Below are positions 7,791-44,776 of a stretch of 64,000 nucleotides of DNA, in pieces. Under the pieces are notes generated by a model that ran no database searches, was not told the DNA's origin, and saw only the letters and a program-made list of their open reading frames with translations. Location of the stretch: assembly GCA_020353215.1 (NCBI GenBank), contig CP070692.1, positions 139 through 64,138 of the forward strand. The letters are read 5' to 3'. How positions within the stretch are numbered: the stretch's first letter is position 1; each line of letters starts with the position of its first letter. Source of the stretch: Deltaproteobacteria bacterium. Its GTDB lineage: Bacteria > Desulfobacterota > Syntrophobacteria > BM002. The translations under genes were made by a program, and so were the position numbers.

Positions 7791-9119
7791 TCAAAGATGC
7801 TTTGACAGGGATATTTGGAATATGGTGCCCCGCTCCACGCCAGGAGTCGCCCAAACCATGCCCTGGTGCCGCTCTGCAATCTCTCTTACGATGGCCAACC
7901 CAAGTCCAGCGCCATCGACAGCCTTGGATGCCTCATCCCGCCGAAAGGCCCTGAAAATCCCTTCGTAGTCTCCCCCTCGAATGCCGGCACCGTTGTCGCT
8001 TACGGCAAGGATGTGGTGCTCCTTTGATTGCTCATAAGCAATTCTGATCTCACTCAAGGTGTCTCCGCCGTGTTTCAGTGCGTTTTCTACAAAATTCCTG
8101 AAAACCCGGAGCAGGGACGGCTTGTCCGCCTTGATGCTGCCCGGGGCTTCAGGTTCCAACCACTCGATTTGACGGCTGGTTAATTGAGGAGAGAATTCGT
8201 CTCTAATGACCTTGAAAATCTCTTTAAGGCTAATTTTCTCCAGTTCAAGCGGTGCCTCCTTGGCTGCGATATACACATTGATCTTTTCTACTAGGGCAGC
8301 AACATGTTCGGAAGCCTTCAATATTTGAGCACAGTAGTTGCTGCCCCTTTCGTCGAGACCGTGGCTGTAGTTTCTATGAAGAAGCTCTGTCAGCCCGTAG
8401 ATGGCCGTTGCCGGACTCTTAAGATCGTGTATTACCGAATAGGCGAAAAACCTGAGTTTCTCTGAACTGTTTCGTAAAGCTTGCTCGACAAGTTTTCGCT
8501 CCGCGATCTCAAGCCGCAATTCGTCATTGGCTCTCGCAAGCTCAGCCGTTCGCTCCTCAATGCGAATCTCCAGTTCGTCATGCGCCTGGAGCAACGCCTC
8601 CTCTGCTAGTCTACGCCCATCTATTTCGCGCTTCAGTTGTTCGTTGGCTTGAGTCAGCTCTGTGGTCCGTTCCTCAACTCTCCTTTCCAACTGGTCATGA
8701 GCTTGCTGGAGTGCTTTTTCCGCCTTTTTCCTTTCGTAGTCCAACTTCTTCATGCTGAGGGCGTTTTCTACCGTGGTTAGCAATTCCTCGAGGTCAAAAG
8801 GTTTTCTTAGGTAGTCATAGACACCTTTGCGCAACGATTCTACGACTGAATCTGTTGAAGCATAGCCGGTCATGACAATAATGGAGGTGGTCAGACCTTG
8901 GCCACGAATAAAATCCATGACTTGATCACCTCCCACCTTCGGCATAACCATGTCCAGCAGGATAAGATCGAAGTCACCTTGGGCAACCAATTCAATGGCT
9001 TCTTTGCCACCATTTACTGCAGTTATCTCGTAGCCGCGACCGCTCAAGAATGTCTTCAAGCTATCACACAGCCGGGGTTCATCATCAACAATCAAGACCT
9101 TGGACGTAACCGACATCAT
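7791..9119 (-). CDS. Hybrid response regulator / histidine kinase (REC - duplicated coiled coil - HisKA - HATPase_c)
   Basis: REC motifs VLIVDDE...ILLDMVMP. Two ERTxEL..AN..L..EI coiled-coil repeats. H-box SVIHDLKSP. N/G boxes ENALKHGG, DNGAGI and GAGLGLAIV. Confidence 0.85.
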   Translation of the reverse strand: MMSVTSKVLIVDDEPRLCDSLKTFLSGRGYEITAVNGGKEAIELVAQGDFDLILLDMVMPKVGGDQVMDFIRGQGLTTSIIVMTGYASTDSVVESLRKGVYDYLRKPFDLEELLTTVENALSMKKLDYERKKAEKALQQAHDQLERRVEERTTELTQANEQLKREIDGRRLAEEALLQAHDELEIRIEERTAELARANDELRLEIAERKLVEQALRNSSEKLRFFAYSVIHDLKSPATAIYGLTELLHRNYSHGLDERGSNYCAQILKASEHVAALVEKINVYIAAKEAPLELEKISLKEIFKVIRDEFSPQLTSRQIEWLEPEAPGSIKADKPSLLRVFRNFVENALKHGGDTLSEIRIAYEQSKEHHILAVSDNGAGIRGGDYEGIFRAFRRDEASKAVDGAGLGLAIVREIAERHQGMVWATPGVERGTIFQISLSKHL

Positions 9120-29916: not shown

Positions 29917-30016
29917 TGGCTGGATGTGGATGCTGAGATTCTGTTATACGGCGGAAAGGCAACGCATGTAAGAAGCGACTGCAAGGGAGTAACGCTTTCA
30001 ACCTTGCGAGTTGGTG

Positions 30017-30337
30017 ATGGCGGAGATCATTCCCAATAAGAGGTTTTTTAGAATCGGTGAAGTTAGTCGGATCGTCGGTGTGCCAGCCCATGTGCTGCGC
30101 TATTGGGAACGAGAATTTTCTTTGGTTCGACCTCGGCGTAATCGATCAAAACAACGGTTGTACCGTCGGAGCGATTTAGAAATACTTCTGCACATCAAGA
30201 ATTTGCTCCATCACCAGAAATACACGATCGCCGGAGCGCGGAAGAAACTGAAGCCTGAGACCACCTCCGAATCCCTGGAAAAAACCCTAGAGGAGATCAA
30301 GGGTGAACTCGTGATCCTAAGACGATTGCTGGATTGA
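30017..30337 (+). CDS. MerR-family transcriptional regulator (small, HTH only)
   Basis: FRIGEVSRIVGVPAHVLRYWEREF is a MerR HTH. The start is taken at ATG 30017; the ORF opens at TTG 30011. Confidence 0.8.
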   Translation: MAEIIPNKRFFRIGEVSRIVGVPAHVLRYWEREFSLVRPRRNRSKQRLYRRSDLEILLHIKNLLHHQKYTIAGARKKLKPETTSESLEKTLEEIKGELVILRRLLD

Positions 30338-30916
30338 ATCCACTTTTTCAGCAAGAGACATATGAATCATAAGTCTATGAGTTGCATATCGTTTGTATTC
30401 TAGCCGTCCGGCCTCGATAACAATAAATCTAAATCCTTCATCATCCGTTTGCTCAACTGCAAACTCCAGCTCAAGATCTAAGCTGTTGAGGTGACAACTG
30501 GGCATGACATTGCATGCTTTACGGATGTTGGTCTTGATTTGCCGGATCGCAGGTAATAGTCCCAAATTGGAATATCCCGTTGTCACTGAGGAGTCTTGAG
30601 ACGGAGTCATCTTGAGCTTCACGAGATGTATCGTTCCTTTGGAAAATCCATCTTCTGCTCCTACTTCCAGACCAGCGACTTCAAATCTTACATCGGATTT
30701 CGAGTTCCTGACAGCTACAACGGCTAAATGAAGTTCAAATCTTTCAATTACTATCTTGAAATCCGCTGATTCAACGCCCTGTGCTGCCATAACTTCATCT
30801 TTTACTGCACGCACAATCTCTTCTACACTGAAGGTTAGTCCCTCTGCATAGCCTAGTGAAAGCCCTGAAACAAGGCTCAATACAATCAATGTTAATCCTA
30901 GTTTTACGCGTAACAT
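30317..30916 (-). CDS. Secreted/lipoprotein-like protein with two tandem Trypco2-like domains
   Basis: Signal peptide MLRVKLGLTLIVLSLVSG. Two about 80-aa units each show 'helix - hydrophobic beta pair (FELHLAVVAV / LDLELEFAV) - acidic loop - ...H.VKLKMTP / HRLMIHMS'. The gene is noticeably AT-rich relative to its neighbours (by eye). Confidence 0.5.
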   Translation of the reverse strand: MLRVKLGLTLIVLSLVSGLSLGYAEGLTFSVEEIVRAVKDEVMAAQGVESADFKIVIERFELHLAVVAVRNSKSDVRFEVAGLEVGAEDGFSKGTIHLVKLKMTPSQDSSVTTGYSNLGLLPAIRQIKTNIRKACNVMPSCHLNSLDLELEFAVEQTDDEGFRFIVIEAGRLEYKRYATHRLMIHMSLAEKVDSIQQSS

Positions 30917-31798
30917 AGAATACTCCAATACATTCGCCTGTGGATTGAAGACAGACTATGCTGTTAACTCACGCTAGCACGTTTGTCCTCGATATGGGTC
31001 GGCAACATTAGGTTCTAGTCTCTTCCAAGTCCTTGATTCTAGCTCTCCATGGACAGAGGAGCAATCCGGAGAAAGTATGGTTTTTATCTCATCCGTGAAT
31101 CTGTACGTTCTAGATACGCCCAGATAGGGGTGTTCAAGCACGAGAGTCCTGGCCCCCATTAGTCCCAAAGCGCCTGCTGACACCTGATTTATGGGTGTCC
31201 TGCCGGATGTCCACCTCGCAACCTTCGAGGTACTGGCGAGATAGGCCTCTGATCCGGGGCCCTGCAGTTGGTGGAACGTCCATCCTCACGGTCCCGCGAC
31301 ACCGGTTTGTGGATAGCACGGACCAGCTGACCTCCGCCCCAACTGCGGCTCTGCCGGCTCCTAGCATAGTTGGAGATTACTGAGGTCTGCTTTATATGCA
31401 GCATTAGTTAGAGACTCTAGATCGCACAGGGCAAGTGAGCTTGACCAAGTCAATTACAGACGAGACTGGGAAACTGTATTCTGCTTGCATGTGCTCTTAT
31501 AACCAGCCGTACGATTAGGTTTCGTGATCAGTACAATACTGGCCCCAGTGTGGTCTAACATTTGCATGGATGAGGCAACCGAGACCCAATCAATGAGAAT
31601 CATTACCGTAATACTACAGCACCCAATCTGTGCCTTAGGGCGGTAAATCATTGTATTCATTGCCTTACAGAAAAGTAATTGCATTTTGATTTCAATATTG
31701 CTATAGATACCCATGGCTCGTTTTACTAACGAAATTAAACGTATACGGGCAAAACCATCGCCTTGAGTTATGTTGCGGGCGTAAAGAGCGGGGTGCTT

Positions 31799-32194
31799 AT
31801 GGATCTTGTCTTGTCTAAAGAAGCAATAAACAATATCGTTGGCGTTCTTGATGAAGATCTGCTCAGAGCTGGCGCTGATTGCGCCCTTCTGGTCGACCGC
31901 TCCGGCAACCTCATTGTCACCCGCGGCGATCCAGCCAACCTTGATGTGGTGGCTCTTGCCGCGCTGTCCGCGGCGAATTTCGGCGCAACTTCCGAAATAG
32001 CTAAACTCATTGGCGAAGATGATTTTGCGCTGCTCTTCCACAAAGGGAAGAATGAGAATATCCATTTCACCAAAGTCGGGAAGGGTTTCATTCTGATCAC
32101 CCTTTTTGGCAAGGACGTGTCTCTGGGGTTGATTCGATTGAAGACAGCTAAGGTGACGGACCAGCTAATACCCATTCTGACCGGAGAGCAGTAA
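31799..32194 (+). CDS. mglB: Roadblock/LC7 GTPase-activating protein MglB
   Basis: LLVDRSGNLI...LAALSAANFGATSEIAKLIGEDDF...FH.G...SLGLIRL is colinear with Myxococcus MglB as I remember it. It ends 2 nt before mglA. The start is uncertain (TTG 31763 or ATG 31799). Confidence 0.85.
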   Translation: MDLVLSKEAINNIVGVLDEDLLRAGADCALLVDRSGNLIVTRGDPANLDVVALAALSAANFGATSEIAKLIGEDDFALLFHKGKNENIHFTKVGKGFILITLFGKDVSLGLIRLKTAKVTDQLIPILTGEQ

Positions 32195-32196
32195 CC

Positions 32197-32808
32197 GTGT
32201 CATTTATTGATCTGAGTAAGAACGAAGTACAGTGCAAAGTCGTTTACTACGGTCCTGGACGTGGCGGTAAGACCACGAATCTGCTTTACGTTCACCAGGC
32301 AATGACAGAGGCGGTACGTGGCAAGATGGTCACAATCGACACCAAGGGCGATCGAACGCTCTTTTTTGATTTTCTCCCCTTGGCACTAGGCAAGATTCAG
32401 AACCTTAGCATCAAGATCCAACTTTATACGGTGCCCGGTCAGGTAATGTATAACGCCACTCGCAAACTGGTGCTGAAAGGGGTGGACGGTGTGGTGTTTG
32501 TGGCGGATTCCCTCAAAGTCCAGAAGGAAAAGAACGTTGAGAGCTTAGACAATCTTAGACAGAATCTCGCAGAGGATAACATTGACATTGGGGAGATTCC
32601 GCTTGTCCTTCAGTACAACAAGAGAGACCTGGGAGGTTCCAATATTCCCATCCTGTCCGTGGAGGAGATGGAAGAAGATCTCAACAATAGACTTCAGGTC
32701 CCCTGGTTTACAGGAAGTGCGCTGAAGGGTGACGGTGTGTTTGAGACCTTGAGGGAGATCAGCAAGCGAACCGTGAAACAAGTGAGCCGCAAGCTGCTCT
32801 CCCGTTAG
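32197..32808 (+). CDS. mglA: Ras-like polarity GTPase MglA
   Basis: MSFIDLSKNEVQCKVVYYGPGRGGKTTNL (P-loop), DRTLFFDFLP, LYTVPGQ (MglA-type switch 2), KGVDGVVFVADS, QYNKRDL. It is near-colinear with M. xanthus MglA. Confidence 0.93.
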   Translation: MSFIDLSKNEVQCKVVYYGPGRGGKTTNLLYVHQAMTEAVRGKMVTIDTKGDRTLFFDFLPLALGKIQNLSIKIQLYTVPGQVMYNATRKLVLKGVDGVVFVADSLKVQKEKNVESLDNLRQNLAEDNIDIGEIPLVLQYNKRDLGGSNIPILSVEEMEEDLNNRLQVPWFTGSALKGDGVFETLREISKRTVKQVSRKLLSR

Positions 32809-32836: not shown

Positions 32837-34882
32837 ATGGATTTAACCGACGACACTCTGGCGAGTGTTGATGCCAGAGAGCTCGAGGCCGACATTGACA
32901 GGGCAATAGACGAACTCTTCGTACAGAAGGGAGGGGCACCGGACCCTGCATCTCTCGAAGAAGAGCCGCCAGAAAAGGCAGAAGAAAAGCCCGCGGAAGA
33001 ATCAACCTTAGACCTGGTAACTGAACCAGCAGTCGAGCTTTTGGCGCCGTTGAAAGAGAGCCTCCTCACTCTGGACTGGGAGATCAGCACCCACAATATC
33101 AGGGCCTTCGAGAAAGAGTTGCAGGTCGTCAGCGAAGACTTCGGTGAAGACCGTCACGGCATGGCAGTGATAAAGATGACCCAGGGGGTCCTTAAATACC
33201 TGCATGCCACCAAGGGTTCGGCTGCGCCCATATCGATCCAGTTTCTTCATGCGGCCACACGTGGCCTTGACCTTTTTCTGCGCGAGCCAGGGGCAGAATC
33301 CAGCGAGCGTGGTCGAGTCATGGAGGAGTTGCTTGGCCAGTTTCGGCGGTTAAAAGCCGAGATCCAGAAGTTGAAGCCGAGGGCGACGCCACCAGCTGAA
33401 GAGGTGGCAGCGGTGCCAGCGGTCGAGCCGGTTGCTCAGCCAGTGACACCGGAGGAGCCAGAGCCGGAACCATCAGTGAAAGAAGAGCTCAGCTTTGAGG
33501 AGCTTCCCGAAGAAAGACCATTGATGGATACACTTCCAGAGCACGAGCCGCTCCTAGAGGAATTCCTCGAGGATGAAGCATTCCCTGAGGAGACGCAAAC
33601 GGAGGACTCGCCATTCGATGACTTTCTCGAAACAGAGCAGTTACTTGAGGGTCTGCCCGAGGAAGAGCCGTTACTTGAGGATCTGCCCGAGGAAGAGCCG
33701 ATCCTTGAACAGGTAGTGGAGGAAGAGTTGGCTAGCGCACCGCTCGGAGGAGAAAAGCCAAAGCTAGACGAACTTCCGGAAGAAGAACCAGTCATAGAGC
33801 TTTCTTTTGAACCGGCGGAAGCGACTCCCGCAGGCGCAACAGCCCGAGTAGAGATTCCAGGGGCATTGCGGCAATTGACCCAGGAAACCAGACGCCACAG
33901 CAAGGAGCTGTCCACTGCGCTGGCGGCACTTACTCAAGAAACCGGCAATTTCTTTGGCCATCTGATGCAGACAGTCGCAGGCAAACCGGGTCTTGAGAAA
34001 CTTGAGAGTCTCTTTGGCAATGTCGAGAAAACCCTGGGAGAAAAGCTGACCAATGCACAGGCGCTTTCTGGGAATCTGGACGCAGCAGTAAGGAAACTGG
34101 AGCAGAGTTTGGGCCAATTGCAGGAAGGAGCTATTGCTCCAGGTTCGCAGGCTGTCATGAAGTCAGAAGTGGAGAGAATCCAGCAGGCGGTCCAGATTTT
34201 GACTAAGGTGGCGTCAAGACTGAAACAGAACCCGAGCGATATAGACGCCGAACAGGTACCGAACTCAGAGGATGCAAACCCTGATAGTCGGATTGACACC
34301 CCTGAGTTCAGCGTGGACTCATTGGAGTCCGAAGAAGCTAAAGAGACATTCACTCTCGAGCTGACAGACCAGTTGCCACCAGAGCCGAGTGGCGCTGCAC
34401 CGCCGTCACTGGACGCGATTTACCTCGCCAATGTCGCGGCCAGTACTTTGGGCCTTCCTACAGACAGGGTCGCGAATGTCTTCAAGATCTCAAAGGGAAA
34501 GGCGAAGGCTTTGCGCAAGAGAGGGTACGCAAGGTTGACCGACTTCAAAGCGGCGTTCCGCAGCCTCAAGCGAGGCATGACGGGCCCACTCGCCGACCAA
34601 GAGGTCAAGTCATTGAAAAGAATAAGATTTCCTCTGGTCACTCTCAGTCCGGAAACCTTGGGTAGCCATGGCATCAAAGCGACGGGCTCCGCCAGAGGTA
34701 TCGTCCTGTTCAGTACCGGCGAGCGTCACGGCGCCTTGTTTACTGATGAAGTCATGCAAAGGATACCTTACGATGTGATGAGCTACAGAGAAGCTGGCCT
34801 CTCCGGAGAAGTGAGCGGTACGGCGATCATTGAAGGAGACTTTGAGATAAGTGTGATTGATCCGGACTACGTGATCCAATAG
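32837..34882 (+). CDS. Acidic scaffold protein: Hpt-like N-domain - Glu/Pro-rich repeats - coiled coil - CheW-like C-domain (no kinase core)
   Basis: The Hpt-like helix VLKYLHATKGSAAPISIQFLHAATRGLDLFL has its His at 33203-33205. LPEEEPLLEDLPEEEPILE repeats follow. The C-terminal 157 aa (34409-34879) carry a CheW-like pattern (GIVLFSTGERHGALFTDEVMQ...GTAIIEGDFEISVIDPDYV). No HATPase motifs are present. Confidence 0.65.
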   Translation: MDLTDDTLASVDARELEADIDRAIDELFVQKGGAPDPASLEEEPPEKAEEKPAEESTLDLVTEPAVELLAPLKESLLTLDWEISTHNIRAFEKELQVVSEDFGEDRHGMAVIKMTQGVLKYLHATKGSAAPISIQFLHAATRGLDLFLREPGAESSERGRVMEELLGQFRRLKAEIQKLKPRATPPAEEVAAVPAVEPVAQPVTPEEPEPEPSVKEELSFEELPEERPLMDTLPEHEPLLEEFLEDEAFPEETQTEDSPFDDFLETEQLLEGLPEEEPLLEDLPEEEPILEQVVEEELASAPLGGEKPKLDELPEEEPVIELSFEPAEATPAGATARVEIPGALRQLTQETRRHSKELSTALAALTQETGNFFGHLMQTVAGKPGLEKLESLFGNVEKTLGEKLTNAQALSGNLDAAVRKLEQSLGQLQEGAIAPGSQAVMKSEVERIQQAVQILTKVASRLKQNPSDIDAEQVPNSEDANPDSRIDTPEFSVDSLESEEAKETFTLELTDQLPPEPSGAAPPSLDAIYLANVAASTLGLPTDRVANVFKISKGKAKALRKRGYARLTDFKAAFRSLKRGMTGPLADQEVKSLKRIRFPLVTLSPETLGSHGIKATGSARGIVLFSTGERHGALFTDEVMQRIPYDVMSYREAGLSGEVSGTAIIEGDFEISVIDPDYVIQ

Positions 34883-34952: not shown

Positions 34953-37208
34953 ATGCAATCGGAAAACGCTAACCAGCCAATCTCTAGTGACCTGTCTCAG
35001 ATCCAAGGGAAGATCGAGGAGGCCGAACTTTACTTAACTCAAGGACTCTTCGAAGAAGCCCGCCAAATCTACCAGAACCTTCTGGACCACATTGGTCCTT
35101 CGAGTCAAGAAGCTGGAATCAATACTTCCGCCCATCACGCCGGCGAAATGCAGCGCTCATTCATTAAAGAACAATTGGCGCTCATTGACCGTCAGGAGGC
35201 AGACTTTCTCGGAAAACCTCCAAGAGCCGAACCAGAAAAGCCAGCCGTCCCAGGAAAAGAAGGAGCTGCCCTCTTCAATCGAGGCTGGGCACTTCTGGAC
35301 ATCGGGATTTTCGCCGATGCGATCCAACAGTTTCATAGTGCCGCCAGGCTGAATTATCGGCCGGTTGAATGCCTGATGGAAATCGGCAAGGCACACATTC
35401 AACTCGGTCAACATAAGAAGGGAATCAAAGTGCTTGAAGAGGCCTCACGGCGCAAGGACATTAGTGCCGAGGACCGCGACCGCTTGTTGGGGCAGATGGC
35501 AAGAGCCTATGAAGCAGCGGCTGACAAGAAAAGAGCCCTTGAGCTTTATCGTCAGTTGGCTGTGCGGGATCCGTATGACGAGGAGGCAGCGAGCAAAGTC
35601 CAAAGCTTGAGGGAGGAAGGCCATCGATATCAACTCAATATGGCAAAGGTTCATCTGCAAAATGGACAGTTTCCGAAAGCAATCGAGACGCTGCGCTCTT
35701 TGCAGCAGAAGAAGGAGGCTCCAGGGCAGAAGCTAGTGCCTGTGTATGAGCAAATCATGCAACAAGATCCGAGTAATCTCGACGCGGTGATGGATCTGGT
35801 CGAAATTTGTAAAAATCAAGGTAACTTGCTACAGGCCAGCCAGTATCTGGAAAGAGTTCAAGAAGCCCGCCCACAGGACGGTTGGTGCCAGCAACAGCTC
35901 ACAGACATTTATACGATGATGCTCGACAGCGGCGCGGCCGGCCCCAACATCCGACTCAAGCTCGCCGGTCACCTTCTCCGATCTGACCAATTGGCCCGGG
36001 CCCTAGAAGAGTATCTGGAGGTGATGCTGGAGGACGGTGCTTACAAGATGGCCGCTTTGAACCAGTTGGGAGAGGCACTGCTGGAGCGCCAAGACTACGA
36101 TCGCCTTCTGGAGATATTGGGAGATGCGTGTCCATGGGTGGAGTCCACCGAGGAAGGAGCTGACGCCCTAAATTATTACTACCTATTGGGGATCGCCTGT
36201 GAAAAGAAACACTTCTACGATCAAGCTCAGGCTTACTTTCAGCGCGCCGTTTCCATTGATCCAGACCACAAGGGAGTACGCGCAAAAGTAGAAAACCAGT
36301 CCAAAGGACCGCTTATTTCCCATGGCAAGTCTTTCCTCCCTGTCCGGTTGCCCGAGAGCCTGGAGTACCAGATACAGGAGGACCTTGGACAAGACGAGAT
36401 TCACCAGGTTTTCAAAGTCCGCGAGGTCCCCGGGGGAGACTTTCGGTTGGCGAAAACCCTTTTGCACAATCATTCTGGGTCAGGCAAAATCAAAAATTTT
36501 GTTGCCCAATGGGCTTACCAACAGGTAACCATGGAAAACCGGAATATCATCCAGGTGTTGGACGTGGCTGGACGGGAGGGGCAGTTCTATATAATAACGG
36601 AAGATCTCCCGGGCAGCCTGGAGGAGTTGCTTAAAGAAAAGACACACTTGCCTTTGGCCGCGGCGGTTTGCATGGCGAGAGGTCTGCTCAACGCCCTCGC
36701 ATATGCCCATTCTCATAGAGGCACCGACGATACCTTGAGGAAAATCTTTCATCTCGCCCTGAATCCAAAACGGGTGTTCATCAGCGCCGATGGCGTAGTT
36801 CCGAAGATTGCCGATTTCGGCTTAACCCTCATGCTGGAGAAACAGCTAGGTTGGGCCCCCAACTACCAGGATCTAGCACCGTTCCAGCTGCAGTACCTGG
36901 CACCGGAACAGTTTGACCGCGTTCCTTCACGGATGCCTGATAAGATGAAACAAGCCGCAGATCTGTATACCTTTGGGGTATTATTCTACCAGATGGTCAC
37001 TGGGAAGGTGCCCTTCGAAGGGCCATCACCTGATGACTTCAAGACCCAGCATGCTGAACGATATCCGGTGCCGCCACGAGTGTTTATTTCTAGCATTCCC
37101 GCTAAACTGGATGAAGCCATCCTCAAATGCCTCCACAAAGATCCGAAGAAGCGGTGGCGCACGCCAACTGAACTAGATCTAGCCCTAGAGAAGATCCACC
37201 TGGGCTGA
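34953..37208 (+). CDS. TPR-repeat protein fused to a degenerate Ser/Thr protein-kinase (pseudokinase) domain
   Basis: About 450 aa of TPR-like helices come first, then a kinase fold. LAKTL stands in for VAIK, HLALNPKRV replaces HRDLKPxN, and ADFG, YLAPEQ, DLYTFGVLFYQMVTG and KRWRTP are retained. Confidence 0.8.
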   Translation: MQSENANQPISSDLSQIQGKIEEAELYLTQGLFEEARQIYQNLLDHIGPSSQEAGINTSAHHAGEMQRSFIKEQLALIDRQEADFLGKPPRAEPEKPAVPGKEGAALFNRGWALLDIGIFADAIQQFHSAARLNYRPVECLMEIGKAHIQLGQHKKGIKVLEEASRRKDISAEDRDRLLGQMARAYEAAADKKRALELYRQLAVRDPYDEEAASKVQSLREEGHRYQLNMAKVHLQNGQFPKAIETLRSLQQKKEAPGQKLVPVYEQIMQQDPSNLDAVMDLVEICKNQGNLLQASQYLERVQEARPQDGWCQQQLTDIYTMMLDSGAAGPNIRLKLAGHLLRSDQLARALEEYLEVMLEDGAYKMAALNQLGEALLERQDYDRLLEILGDACPWVESTEEGADALNYYYLLGIACEKKHFYDQAQAYFQRAVSIDPDHKGVRAKVENQSKGPLISHGKSFLPVRLPESLEYQIQEDLGQDEIHQVFKVREVPGGDFRLAKTLLHNHSGSGKIKNFVAQWAYQQVTMENRNIIQVLDVAGREGQFYIITEDLPGSLEELLKEKTHLPLAAAVCMARGLLNALAYAHSHRGTDDTLRKIFHLALNPKRVFISADGVVPKIADFGLTLMLEKQLGWAPNYQDLAPFQLQYLAPEQFDRVPSRMPDKMKQAADLYTFGVLFYQMVTGKVPFEGPSPDDFKTQHAERYPVPPRVFISSIPAKLDEAILKCLHKDPKKRWRTPTELDLALEKIHLG

Positions 37209-37320
37209 TAGCCTAGCGGTATTATTCACCAGACGCCTAGTTCAACCACAGATATGAGCATCATTCCTGGCGTCCTCGGGCCTCAGACCCTGTGACGTAC
37301 TGTGGAAGTAGGTCACGCGT

Positions 37321-37531: not shown

Positions 37532-38761
37532 CTATTTTCTTTTGAGGAAGGAAAGGATACCCCCAGCCTTCTCTTTGCCGCCGACTGCTTGGAGGGCTTC
37601 CTGTTGAAACTGTTCCACGGTTTGATTGATGGCGCTGAGAATTGTCCCTTTGAGCTGGGGCTTTACAGGGAGTTTTTGCCAGGCGGCGCCTGGCTTTATC
37701 AAGGCCTGGATGCTCGCCGTCATCTCCTTCTCATTAAGCACCTCTGTCTGCTTGTGCAGGATTACAAGGATCCAGGCATTGAAAGAGTTGAGAATTGCCT
37801 CCTTACCAGGGGCAGAATCAGCTGCTGACTGAAGCATCCTGTGAATGTTGGTCTTGGCGTCTTTCGAGCAATCGTAGGTTCGCAGCAGTTCCAGTTGGTG
37901 GTCTGGCAACTGATTTTTCGCCTCTTGCAGCAGGGGGAGGGCTTGTGTGCCCACCGCCTTTTCCGAGATCTTCCGCATATTCTGCAGCACTTCATGATAA
38001 ATCTGGATGATGATGGAAGACTCGTTCCGGTCCCCCGGGGCGGCTGTGGGGCCGGACTCGCTCTTCTCGATTATGCCGGAGGAGATCAAAGAGTTGATCA
38101 CGCGGTAGACAACAAACTCGTCGTGCCCGCTGTCAACGATGATCTGCTGGACCGACCTTTTCCCGTCCACGAGTGAAATAACACGCCATTCGTTGGCGGT
38201 GAGGTTGACCGAGCTTTTCTGTTGCTCCACACTTCTGTTAATTTTGAAAACGACTTGGGGGTGTGGAATATTCTTCTTGAGAATGGCCCATTCATCTACT
38301 CGACGAGTGCCCTCCAGAATAATCTCCATGTGATTTAGCTCGGTACTAAATTCTGCGTCCACACTGATCTCCTGGTCCACATACTCAAAATCGCCCTGTG
38401 GCCACAAGAACAAGTCATAGAGAATGTCCCGTACCTGCTGATGAAGGAATTTTTTTAACGTGTCTAACGATATATAACCCTTTTCCACCAGGATCTTCCC
38501 AAGTCGCTCTTGCTTGTGTTTAGCTAGAGTCAGCGCTTTTTGGAGTTCCTGAGCCGAGATGATACCTTTGGCGCGCAGTAGGTAACCAAGCCTTACCTCC
38601 TTCTGGTTTCCAACTGCGTGGATGATACTGCCATTCTTGAAGTAGACCTTCGCCAATCGCCCCTTTTCAGCGATGGTGAGAATCCCTGTTTTCTTATCTC
38701 CGGAGAGTAGCTGAAGGATGCTGGCGAGATTGAAGGTCTCAATGTTGCCCTTCAGTGACAT
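37532..38761 (-). CDS. PATAN (DUF4388) domain protein with inserted MshEN/T2SSE_N-type c-di-GMP-binding motifs
   Basis: The N-terminus GNIETFNLASILQLLSGDKKTGILTI...VYFKNGSIIHA is DUF4388-like. Residues 57-109 read RLGYLLRAKGIISAQELQKALTLA-KHKQE-RLGKILVEKGYISLDTLKKFLHQQ. The PATAN second half follows (DILYDLFLWPQGDFEY). Confidence 0.8.
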   Translation of the reverse strand: MSLKGNIETFNLASILQLLSGDKKTGILTIAEKGRLAKVYFKNGSIIHAVGNQKEVRLGYLLRAKGIISAQELQKALTLAKHKQERLGKILVEKGYISLDTLKKFLHQQVRDILYDLFLWPQGDFEYVDQEISVDAEFSTELNHMEIILEGTRRVDEWAILKKNIPHPQVVFKINRSVEQQKSSVNLTANEWRVISLVDGKRSVQQIIVDSGHDEFVVYRVINSLISSGIIEKSESGPTAAPGDRNESSIIIQIYHEVLQNMRKISEKAVGTQALPLLQEAKNQLPDHQLELLRTYDCSKDAKTNIHRMLQSAADSAPGKEAILNSFNAWILVILHKQTEVLNEKEMTASIQALIKPGAAWQKLPVKPQLKGTILSAINQTVEQFQQEALQAVGGKEKAGGILSFLKRK

Positions 38762-43747: not shown

Positions 43748-44776
43748 ATGAGACTTTTGGATATACTTTCTGGTTTCTTTGCCAAAGACATGGCTATGGA
43801 TCTGGGTACAGCAAACACCCTCATCTATGTGAAAGGGGAGGGGATTGTGCTCAATGAGCCTTCGGTGGTGGCCCTCAGCCGCAACACTGGAAGGGTTATA
43901 GCGGTGGGTCGTGAGGCCAAGGAGTATCTTGGCCGTACGCCGCAGAAGATCATGGCCATTCGTCCCATGAAAGATGGAGTGATCGCCGATTTTGAAGTGA
44001 CCAGTGTTATGATCACCTACTTTCTTAACAAAGTATACAAGCGCACTTTTCTTTTCCGACCACGGCTTGTCGTCGCAGTGCCCAGTGGCATAACACAGGT
44101 GGAAAAACGAGCAGTTATTGACGCAGCAGAACAGGCTGGCGCACGCCGTGTGCACCTAATCGAAGAACCCATGGCCGCCGCTATTGGTATTGGCCTTCCC
44201 ATCAGCGAGCCCATGGGTAACATGGTGGTCGATATAGGAGGCGGTACCACTGAGGTTGCGGTGATTTCGCTGTCAGCTGTGGCCCATGCTGAGTCGGTGC
44301 GAGTGGCGGGAGATGAGGCCGATCAGGCCATAATTCGGTACATTCAGCAGCATCACCAAATCGCGATCGGTGAAAACGAGGCTGAACGGATAAAGCTGGC
44401 TATCGGTTCGGCCTGCCCACTCGATGAACCGATGACTCTGGAGGTGGCGGGTAAAGAAATCCTTACGGGCATACCCAGATCCTTCCGGGTTCATGATCAG
44501 GAGATCAGACGCGCCCTGAGGGAACCGGTTAATGTGATCATCGAAAGCGTCAAGCGCGCTTTCGAACGGACGCCGCCTGAACTGGCAACGGATATCTCTG
44601 ACAACGGCGTATGGTTGGCAGGCGGTGGCGCGCTTCTCAAGAGATTGGACGTCCTACTGAGTGACATACTGCAGCTCCCGGTTAAGGTGGACCCGGATCC
44701 TCTTACTGCAGTGACCCGTGGCGCGGGTCAGGTGATGGAATCTATAGGTGATTTCAGGCAGGTTTTCATCAACTGA
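43748..44776 (+). CDS. mreB: Rod-shape-determining actin homologue MreB
   Basis: DMAMDLGTANTLIYV, EPSVVA, IEEPMAAAIG, VVDIGGGTTEVAV. No mreC/mreD lies downstream. Confidence 0.95.
   Translation: MRLLDILSGFFAKDMAMDLGTANTLIYVKGEGIVLNEPSVVALSRNTGRVIAVGREAKEYLGRTPQKIMAIRPMKDGVIADFEVTSVMITYFLNKVYKRTFLFRPRLVVAVPSGITQVEKRAVIDAAEQAGARRVHLIEEPMAAAIGIGLPISEPMGNMVVDIGGGTTEVAVISLSAVAHAESVRVAGDEADQAIIRYIQQHHQIAIGENEAERIKLAIGSACPLDEPMTLEVAGKEILTGIPRSFRVHDQEIRRALREPVNVIIESVKRAFERTPPELATDISDNGVWLAGGGALLKRLDVLLSDILQLPVKVDPDPLTAVTRGAGQVMESIGDFRQVFIN

Follow-up and report, generated by a model that had tools for sequence, protein, structure and literature searches.

Several of the systems closest to the one described here are known from Myxococcus xanthus. 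In this bacterium, SopA, SgmX and FrzS are MglA-dependent polar scaffolds that have been tied to recruitment of the pilus ATPase (PMC11580455, PMC7519303), and scaffolds of this type, built from folded domains and disordered linkers, recruit PilB (PMC11580455). The masABK genes of the same organism adjoin mglBA; they comprise a protein-kinase gene and the genes of two uncharacterised proteins of 505 and 656 amino acid residues (aa), and they show genetic links to MglA and to pili (PMC3546991). A survey of prokaryotic small GTPases found the neighbourhoods of group 1 mglA genes to be variable, and only PATAN proteins were noted in them (PMC4316618). A CheW-like partner encoded in an mglBA operon is not described in these reports (PMC4316618, PMC3546991, PMC11580455), and little has been learned outside Myxococcus about how sensory input and motility machines are coupled to the MglA/MglB switch. 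Here we analyse a stretch of 64,000 nucleotides (nt) from a Deltaproteobacteria bacterium (contig CP070692.1; the whole stretch is called the window, and all positions refer to it), in which the gene directly after mglA, at 32837-34882 on the + strand, encodes a 681-aa protein that we call X. We propose that X, a modular protein without catalytic function, serves the MglB/MglA polarity-GTPase module as a scaffold, adaptor or effector, and we put the probability of this reading at about 0.6. It is based on the lack of a catalytic domain, on two conserved folded modules joined to a coiled coil and acidic linkers, and on the linkage of the gene to mglB and mglA.

X is the third gene of a cluster on the + strand. 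The first gene, mglB (31763-32194), encodes a Roadblock/LC7 GTPase-activating protein (Pfam Robl_LC7, E-value (E) 1.1e-11; E 1.3e-22 against the PDB sequence of M. xanthus MglB). The second, mglA (32197-32808), encodes a Ras-like polarity GTPase that carries the motif LYTVPGQ and matches M. xanthus MglA (PDB) over residues 1-196 with E 7e-62. The fourth (34953-37208) encodes a protein with TPR repeats and a protein-kinase-like domain (Pfam Pkinase E 5e-25, plus TPR). X is separated from mglA by 28 nt and from the kinase-like gene by 70 nt, and no terminator-like site was found in either gap. A terminator-like hairpin is present at the end of the fourth gene (37200-37216), in a scan whose totals were not above chance.

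We compared 18 close loci, all from metagenome-assembled genomes (MAGs) of Syntrophobacteria/Desulfobacterota. Fifteen could be assessed; two lacked upstream sequence, and in one (L010) the seeming lack of mglBA is due to a scaffold gap (runs of N) that interrupts X. The order mglB-mglA-X-TPR/kinase was kept in 15 of 15 assessable loci, and X was followed immediately by the TPR/kinase-like gene in each of the close loci. Compared with the proteins of the window, MglB was 87-92% identical in the 15 loci and MglA 89-95% identical in orthologous loci. The linkage is also seen in distant relatives of X with upstream mglB/mglA, which share only ~20-30% identity with it. Seven of the eight distant relatives looked up have a Roadblock gene, an mglA gene or both directly upstream: MglA, with or without Roadblock, for P0140, P0131, P0163, P0191 and P0155, and Roadblock for P0144 and P0168. 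Other genes near the distant relatives encode kinase-like, TPR, HAMP, PatA_N, PilZ, REC-GGDEF and T2SSE/MshEN (pilus ATPase) proteins. Across a whole lineage, the third place in the mglBA operon is in this way constantly taken by the gene of a large, CheW-like-domain protein, and the link persists even at 20-30% identity.

The sequence of X is that of JSU72_00145, a hypothetical protein from a Deltaproteobacteria MAG (100% identity). Homologues of X number more than 160, all of them unnamed or called 'hypothetical' in the databases except for one automatic 'CheA' label. Full-length X gave no significant match in Pfam, in NCBIfam or among PDB sequences. An AlphaFold model built with an alignment of 52 close orthologues, together with a separate model of the C-terminal domain, gives its architecture from the N to the C terminus: an acidic helix, a five-helix bundle, an acidic linker, a coiled coil of three helices, another acidic linker and a CheW-like domain.

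The acidic amphipathic helix comprises residues 12-28 (ELEADIDRAIDELF; 32870-32920, +), is invariant in the 52 orthologues, and is modelled as helical over residues 13-28 with a block-mean predicted local distance difference test score (pLDDT) of 70-77. Its motif occurs in one or two copies in 32 of 128 distant relatives. The bundle that follows (residues 66-180; 33032-33376, +) carries the motif LSLDWE and is predicted to consist of helices 70-81, 85-102, 106-124, 131-148 and 155-179, with block-mean pLDDT values of ~77-92. In a wider set of 75 N-terminal domains, taken from representatives clustered at 50% identity, Trp81 of the LSLDWE motif (33077-33079) was present in all 75 and was the only invariant residue of the bundle. 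The LSLDWE bundle and the CheW-like domain are found together in 85 of 128 representatives, and the bundle is sometimes present in two or three copies. Thus P0144 (1039 aa; L004, 8001-11120) has two LSLDWE bundles before a single C-terminal CheW-like domain, and P0168 (1287 aa; L026, 7001-10864) has three. The neighbours of P0144 also include pilus-ATPase, PilZ and GGDEF genes.

Residues 181-340 (33377-33856, +) form a Glu/Pro-rich linker that is predicted to be disordered (pLDDT <50) and contains 28% Glu and 16% Pro, with a net charge of -46. A 30-nt tandem repeat lies within it at 33634-33708 (2.5 copies, 91% matches; Tandem Repeats Finder). The lengths of the X orthologues step by 10 aa (among P0001-P0120, 49 of 120 lengths equal 6 and 26 of 120 equal 2 modulo 10), and the acidic linker therefore evolves as units of a decapeptide (EEEPxLEExx) are gained and lost. 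Residues 341-463 (33857-34225, +) are modelled as three long helices (342-381, 386-428 and 435-463; block-mean pLDDT ~61-87) that would form the coiled coil. In Pfam, these middle helices gave only weak matches of the coiled-coil type, with PilJ at E 0.016. The second acidic linker, residues 464-525 (34226-34411, +), also has pLDDT <50; it is rich in Pro, Glu, Ser and Asp and has a net charge of -14.

The C-terminal domain, residues 526-681 (34412-34879, +), was left unfolded in the full-length model made with the 52 close orthologues (pLDDT ~30). A profile of this domain was therefore searched against 1.84 billion representative proteins, which gave 129 relatives. The CheW-like domain is at the C terminus of every relative except P0149 and P0208, which were set aside as spurious (<15 bits, with the match far from the C terminus). 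In a wide alignment of 41 diverse sequences, 14 of the 41 domains matched Pfam CheW (best E 1.4e-5), and any other family was matched by at most one member. The two best matches of the domain profile among PDB sequences were CheA P5 domains, with E 0.44 and 0.86. As side evidence from weak, single-sequence comparisons, hhalign of the family against CheA gave E 0.007-0.01; with full-length E. coli CheA, only the end of P5 was aligned.

When the wide alignment was used as input, AlphaFold folded residues 521-681 with a pLDDT of 92 and a predicted TM-score (pTM) of 0.86. In a Foldseek search of the PDB with this model, ranks 1-18 were all CheA-P5 or CheW (E 1.5e-5 to 3e-2, probability 0.99-1.00, query-normalised TM-score 0.44-0.58), and rank 19 fell to E 0.65 and probability 0.06. 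Assignment of the C terminus of X to the CheW/CheA-P5 fold, a double five-stranded beta-barrel (SH3-like), is well supported by this model. The predicted domain is divergent. DSSP of the model shows a helical insertion of ~60 residues (~553-615; 34493-34681, +) in the place of second-barrel strands of CheW. Across the wide alignments, conservation is highest in its motif RGYAxLxDFKxxFRSxKxGxxGP, which points to a putative family-specific binding site.

The first-pass annotation of this gene had anticipated much of this outline. The 681-aa reading frame at 32837-34882 (+), its place directly after a true mglA, the Glu/Pro-rich low-complexity stretch with a 30-nt duplication, the coiled coil, the lack of a kinase core and the CheW/P5 pattern in the last ~157 aa were all borne out. 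For the kinase core, searches of Pfam and NCBIfam with E up to 1 found no match in X to HATPase_c (P4) or H-kinase_dim (P3).

How does X compare with proteins already described? Its C-terminal 156 residues share the predicted double beta-barrel with CheW and CheA P5 (PF01584), and its relatives match Pfam CheW. X differs from CheW and P5 in that its own sequence goes undetected by Pfam and in that the helical insertion replaces part of the second barrel. The domain of X also comes joined to a helical bundle, to acidic linkers and to a coiled coil, and is encoded in an mglBA operon rather than in a chemotaxis cluster. Compared with CheA (P1-P2-P3-P4-P5), X has a similar order of parts, namely a helical bundle, long helices and a P5-like domain, but it lacks the P4 ATPase, a detectable P3 or P2 and a conserved phospho-accepting His, and so cannot be a kinase. 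Membership of X in the CheA family was rejected, since it has neither a P4 nor a P3 domain. FrzB of M. xanthus, a divergent CheW without the CheA-binding strands, presumably resembles X in having an altered second subdomain. The host of FrzB uses MglA/MglB, but FrzB itself is small, has a single domain and belongs to the frz chemosensory cluster, whereas X is large and multidomain and is encoded after mglA.

With SopA, SgmX and FrzS, X has in common that it is cytoplasmic and non-enzymatic, that folded interaction domains alternate with disordered linkers, and that it is tied to MglA. It differs from them in that no homology between X and these proteins was detected and in that X is encoded within the mglBA operon itself. 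We also considered whether X could be SopA and rejected this, since SopA reportedly lacks Foldseek matches (PMC11580455), in contrast to X with its clear CheW-like domain. The masABK locus resembles the X cluster by its description, which places a kinase gene and uncharacterised proteins beside mglBA, but masABK and mglBA are oriented divergently, and the Mas proteins are described as membrane proteins or lipoproteins (PMC3546991). By computation, X presents a predicted CheW-like domain within a multidomain architecture that is new and is tied to a polarity GTPase of the Ras-like type, and it offers a case of a CheW-type domain used outside chemotaxis clusters.

If X is a scaffold of MglA/MglB, its CheW-like domain and its bundle would act as protein-binding modules and would tether MglA/MglB to partners encoded nearby. 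Candidate partners are the TPR/degenerate-kinase protein, PATAN and PilZ proteins, type IV pilus ATPases and possibly receptor arrays. The acidic linker may serve as a flexible spacer between the modules. X would then be analogous to the polar scaffolds that recruit pilus and motility machinery in Myxococcus, and it is a well-defined candidate, open to experiment, for a new partner of MglA/MglB.

Several points weigh against this proposal. The window's own C-terminal domain gave no match to Pfam CheW (PF01584), and the E-value of the profile against the PDB is weak (0.44). The model superimposes on CheW folds with a TM-score of ~0.5 and a root-mean-square deviation (rmsd) of 5-7 A, so that the fold is a divergent one. 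The gene for P0185 lies between a prepilin peptidase (PilD) gene and a PilZ gene and not next to mglA/mglB. All members of the X family come from uncultured bacteria, mostly Syntrophobacteria/Desulfobacterota MAGs, in which motility and pili are not established; a wide search with the full-length profile mostly returned the close family again, one with the profile of the C-terminal domain yielded fragments only, and cluster membership supplied one further Deltaproteobacteria name. Finally, linkage of the gene to mglBA is no proof that X binds the encoded proteins.

Three other explanations were weighed against the scaffold reading. According to the first, X descends from CheA: it would have kept P1-like, P3-like and P5-like parts, lost P2 and P4, and would enter chemoreceptor arrays by way of its P5/CheW-like domain, linking an array physically to MglA/MglB without phosphotransfer. 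The order of the domains fits P1-P3-P5, and CheA supplies the best PDB fold matches for the N-terminal as well as the C-terminal domain, with P5 ahead of CheW at the C terminus, where CheA P5 also provides the best sequence-profile matches. For the bundle of the full-length model, Foldseek placed the P1 domain of CheA3 first (3kyi_A and 3kyj_A, E 0.15-0.32), with many unrelated bundles close behind; the target-normalised TM-score of these matches was ~0.5 and the rmsd ~5 A. The modelled bundle thus resembles CheA P1 weakly, and a distant ancestry in P1 is possible. A precedent for chemosensory control also exists, as the Frz system controls MglA/MglB in M. xanthus (PMC3441718).

Descent from CheA nevertheless meets with difficulties. 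For two of the three parts, the N-terminal domain and the middle helices, the similarity is not significant. The barrel region that mediates contacts of CheW and P5 is the one that the family-specific helical insertion replaces in X. No MCP (methyl-accepting chemotaxis protein), CheA, CheY or CheB gene is present within the 64-kb window, and in nine neighbourhoods examined the sole chemotaxis genes were one PatA_N-REC-CheB gene and one faint CheC match. We therefore regard descent of this kind as unlikely. A bolder form of it, which we hold to be similarly doubtful, is that X founds a new family of CheA-derived pseudo-kinase scaffolds, with a P1-like bundle devoid of His, a P3-like hairpin and a P5-like domain that has acquired a new binding insert. 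Such a protein would connect MglA/MglB directly with a receptor array or with the machinery of type IV pili, together with a catalytically dead TPR-kinase and a c-di-GMP-binding PATAN protein, by contacts rather than by phosphotransfer.

A second explanation takes X to be functionally unrelated to MglA/MglB and to share only a transcript with them, for instance as an acidic coiled-coil or cytoskeletal protein, or as an accessory factor of pili or secretion. The location of P0185 between its prepilin peptidase and PilZ genes, without mglA or mglB, and the frequent presence of T2SSE/MshEN ATPases in the neighbourhoods would fit such a role. Yet the place directly after mglB/mglA has been kept at ~20-30% identity, and in the absence of a functional link this would be difficult to account for; we judge a mere sharing of the transcript to be improbable.

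The third explanation is the one put forward in the first-pass annotation, in which X is a remnant of CheA without its kinase: a phosphorylatable Hpt domain, tethered to a receptor-coupling domain, would receive phosphate on His123 from an orphan CheA or hybrid kinase and deliver it at receptor arrays through the CheW-like domain. The motif behind this proposal is real. The string VLKYLHATKGSAAPISIQFLHAATRGLDLFL is present in X, and the codon of His123 (CAT) is at 33203-33205 (+). Translated in six frames, the window yields a single instance of the Hpt signature (regular expression H[AST].KG.[AS][AG]), the literal HATKGSAA, against 1.5e-4 occurrences expected for X. Pfam Hpt (PF01627) aligns residues 115-173 of X to profile positions 26-75, and the first Foldseek match of the bundle is a P1 domain, as described above, alongside a P5/CheW-like C-terminal domain.

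The meaning given to the motif did not survive comparison with the family. Among 280 family proteins fetched, the signature was found in one, the window's own X. Of the 52 close orthologues, 49 have Arg and 3 have His at position 123, and in the 75 wider N-terminal domains the residue there is most often Lys (26), Arg (17), Leu (6), Gln (5) or Ala (4). The annotation had named a lack of conservation of His123 in orthologues as refuting its proposal, and His123 is indeed not conserved. No other His takes its place family-wide in the 75 domains; the invariance of His107 and His138 does not extend beyond the close family. Scores for Pfam Hpt were 11.7 bits (E 0.32) for whole X and 14.1 bits (E 0.057) for the isolated domain, both below the cut-off of 24.6 bits, and an Hpt match of any strength was obtained with 1 of 30 diverse N-terminal domains of the family, again the window's own. 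Searched against PDB sequences, the profile of the N-terminal domain found no Hpt domain and only designed helical repeat proteins. In hhalign against E. coli CheA P1, a weak, single-sequence comparison, E was 0.17 and His48 was not paired with His123. The AlphaFold model puts His123 one residue before the end of helix 106-124, ahead of a loop with the invariant Pro131. In Hpt domains, the phospho-accepting His is in the middle of a helix, unlike His123 in the model.

The two domain assignments of the annotation thus fared differently. In profile searches, Hpt stayed below the cut-off, and CheW was not detected in X itself but was found in 14 of 41 relatives; structure prediction returned a CheW-type fold at the C terminus and, at the N terminus, a five-helix bundle that resembles P1 weakly. 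An Hpt function of X was rejected because His123 is not conserved. With no kinase core and no conserved His, X is not a general phosphotransfer protein; such a role is refuted for the X family and, judged from the alignments, very unlikely for the X of this window. The Hpt-like motif is, on the same alignments, a single-lineage coincidence, which illustrates that even a textbook-looking Hpt motif can arise in this way. One orthologue, P0274 (668 aa), is labelled 'chemotaxis protein histidine kinase CheA' by JGI. The label could be cited for a CheA remnant, but no Pfam domain was found in this protein at E up to 1, and the name is likely an over-annotation. Taken together, these results leave a kinase-less CheA that relays phosphate through His123 with next to no credibility.

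Returning to the cluster around the proposed scaffold gene, we examined its fourth gene and its surroundings. The catalytic loop of the TPR/kinase-like protein (~36750-36773, +) reads HLALNPKR where active Ser/Thr kinases have HRDLKPxN. The DFG motif is kept, and HL[AG]LN was found in 18 of 18 orthologous loci. Because the catalytic Asp and Asn are missing, the protein is probably a pseudokinase scaffold.

The gene order of the window in this region is pheS, pheT, merR, an inserted Trypco2 gene, mglB, mglA, X and the TPR/kinase-like gene, followed on the opposite strand by genes for a PATAN protein, miaA and mutL, with mreB further on. The syntenic MerR-family regulator upstream of mglB (30011-30337, +; Pfam MerR_1 E 8.7e-21) is kept in the close loci and in one distant locus. 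The gap between merR and mglB (30337-31763) is ~1.4 kb here versus ~0.15-0.19 kb in most orthologous loci. The extra DNA holds an open reading frame with a Trypco2 domain (30317-30928, -), has a G+C content down to 0.475 and looks like a lineage-specific insertion.

The convergent neighbour of the cluster (37532-38761, -) encodes a PATAN/DUF4388 protein (Pfam DUF4388 E 1e-35), and its gene recurs in many of the orthologous loci, as well as in the neighbourhood of one distant relative. Residues 57-109 of this protein carry an MshEN-related c-di-GMP-binding motif (NCBIfam NF053729, E 3.7e-14), which hints at a c-di-GMP input adjoining the mgl cluster.

Among the window's open reading frames scanned, the only histidine kinase was a REC-HisKA-HATPase_c hybrid kinase (7791-9119, -), which is located ~24 kb from X and shows no sign of linkage to it. 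A connection of MglA with MreB has been reported in M. xanthus (PMC4508894). In the window, mreB (43748-44776, +) lies ~9 kb downstream of the mgl cluster, and this proximity is probably a coincidence of housekeeping synteny.

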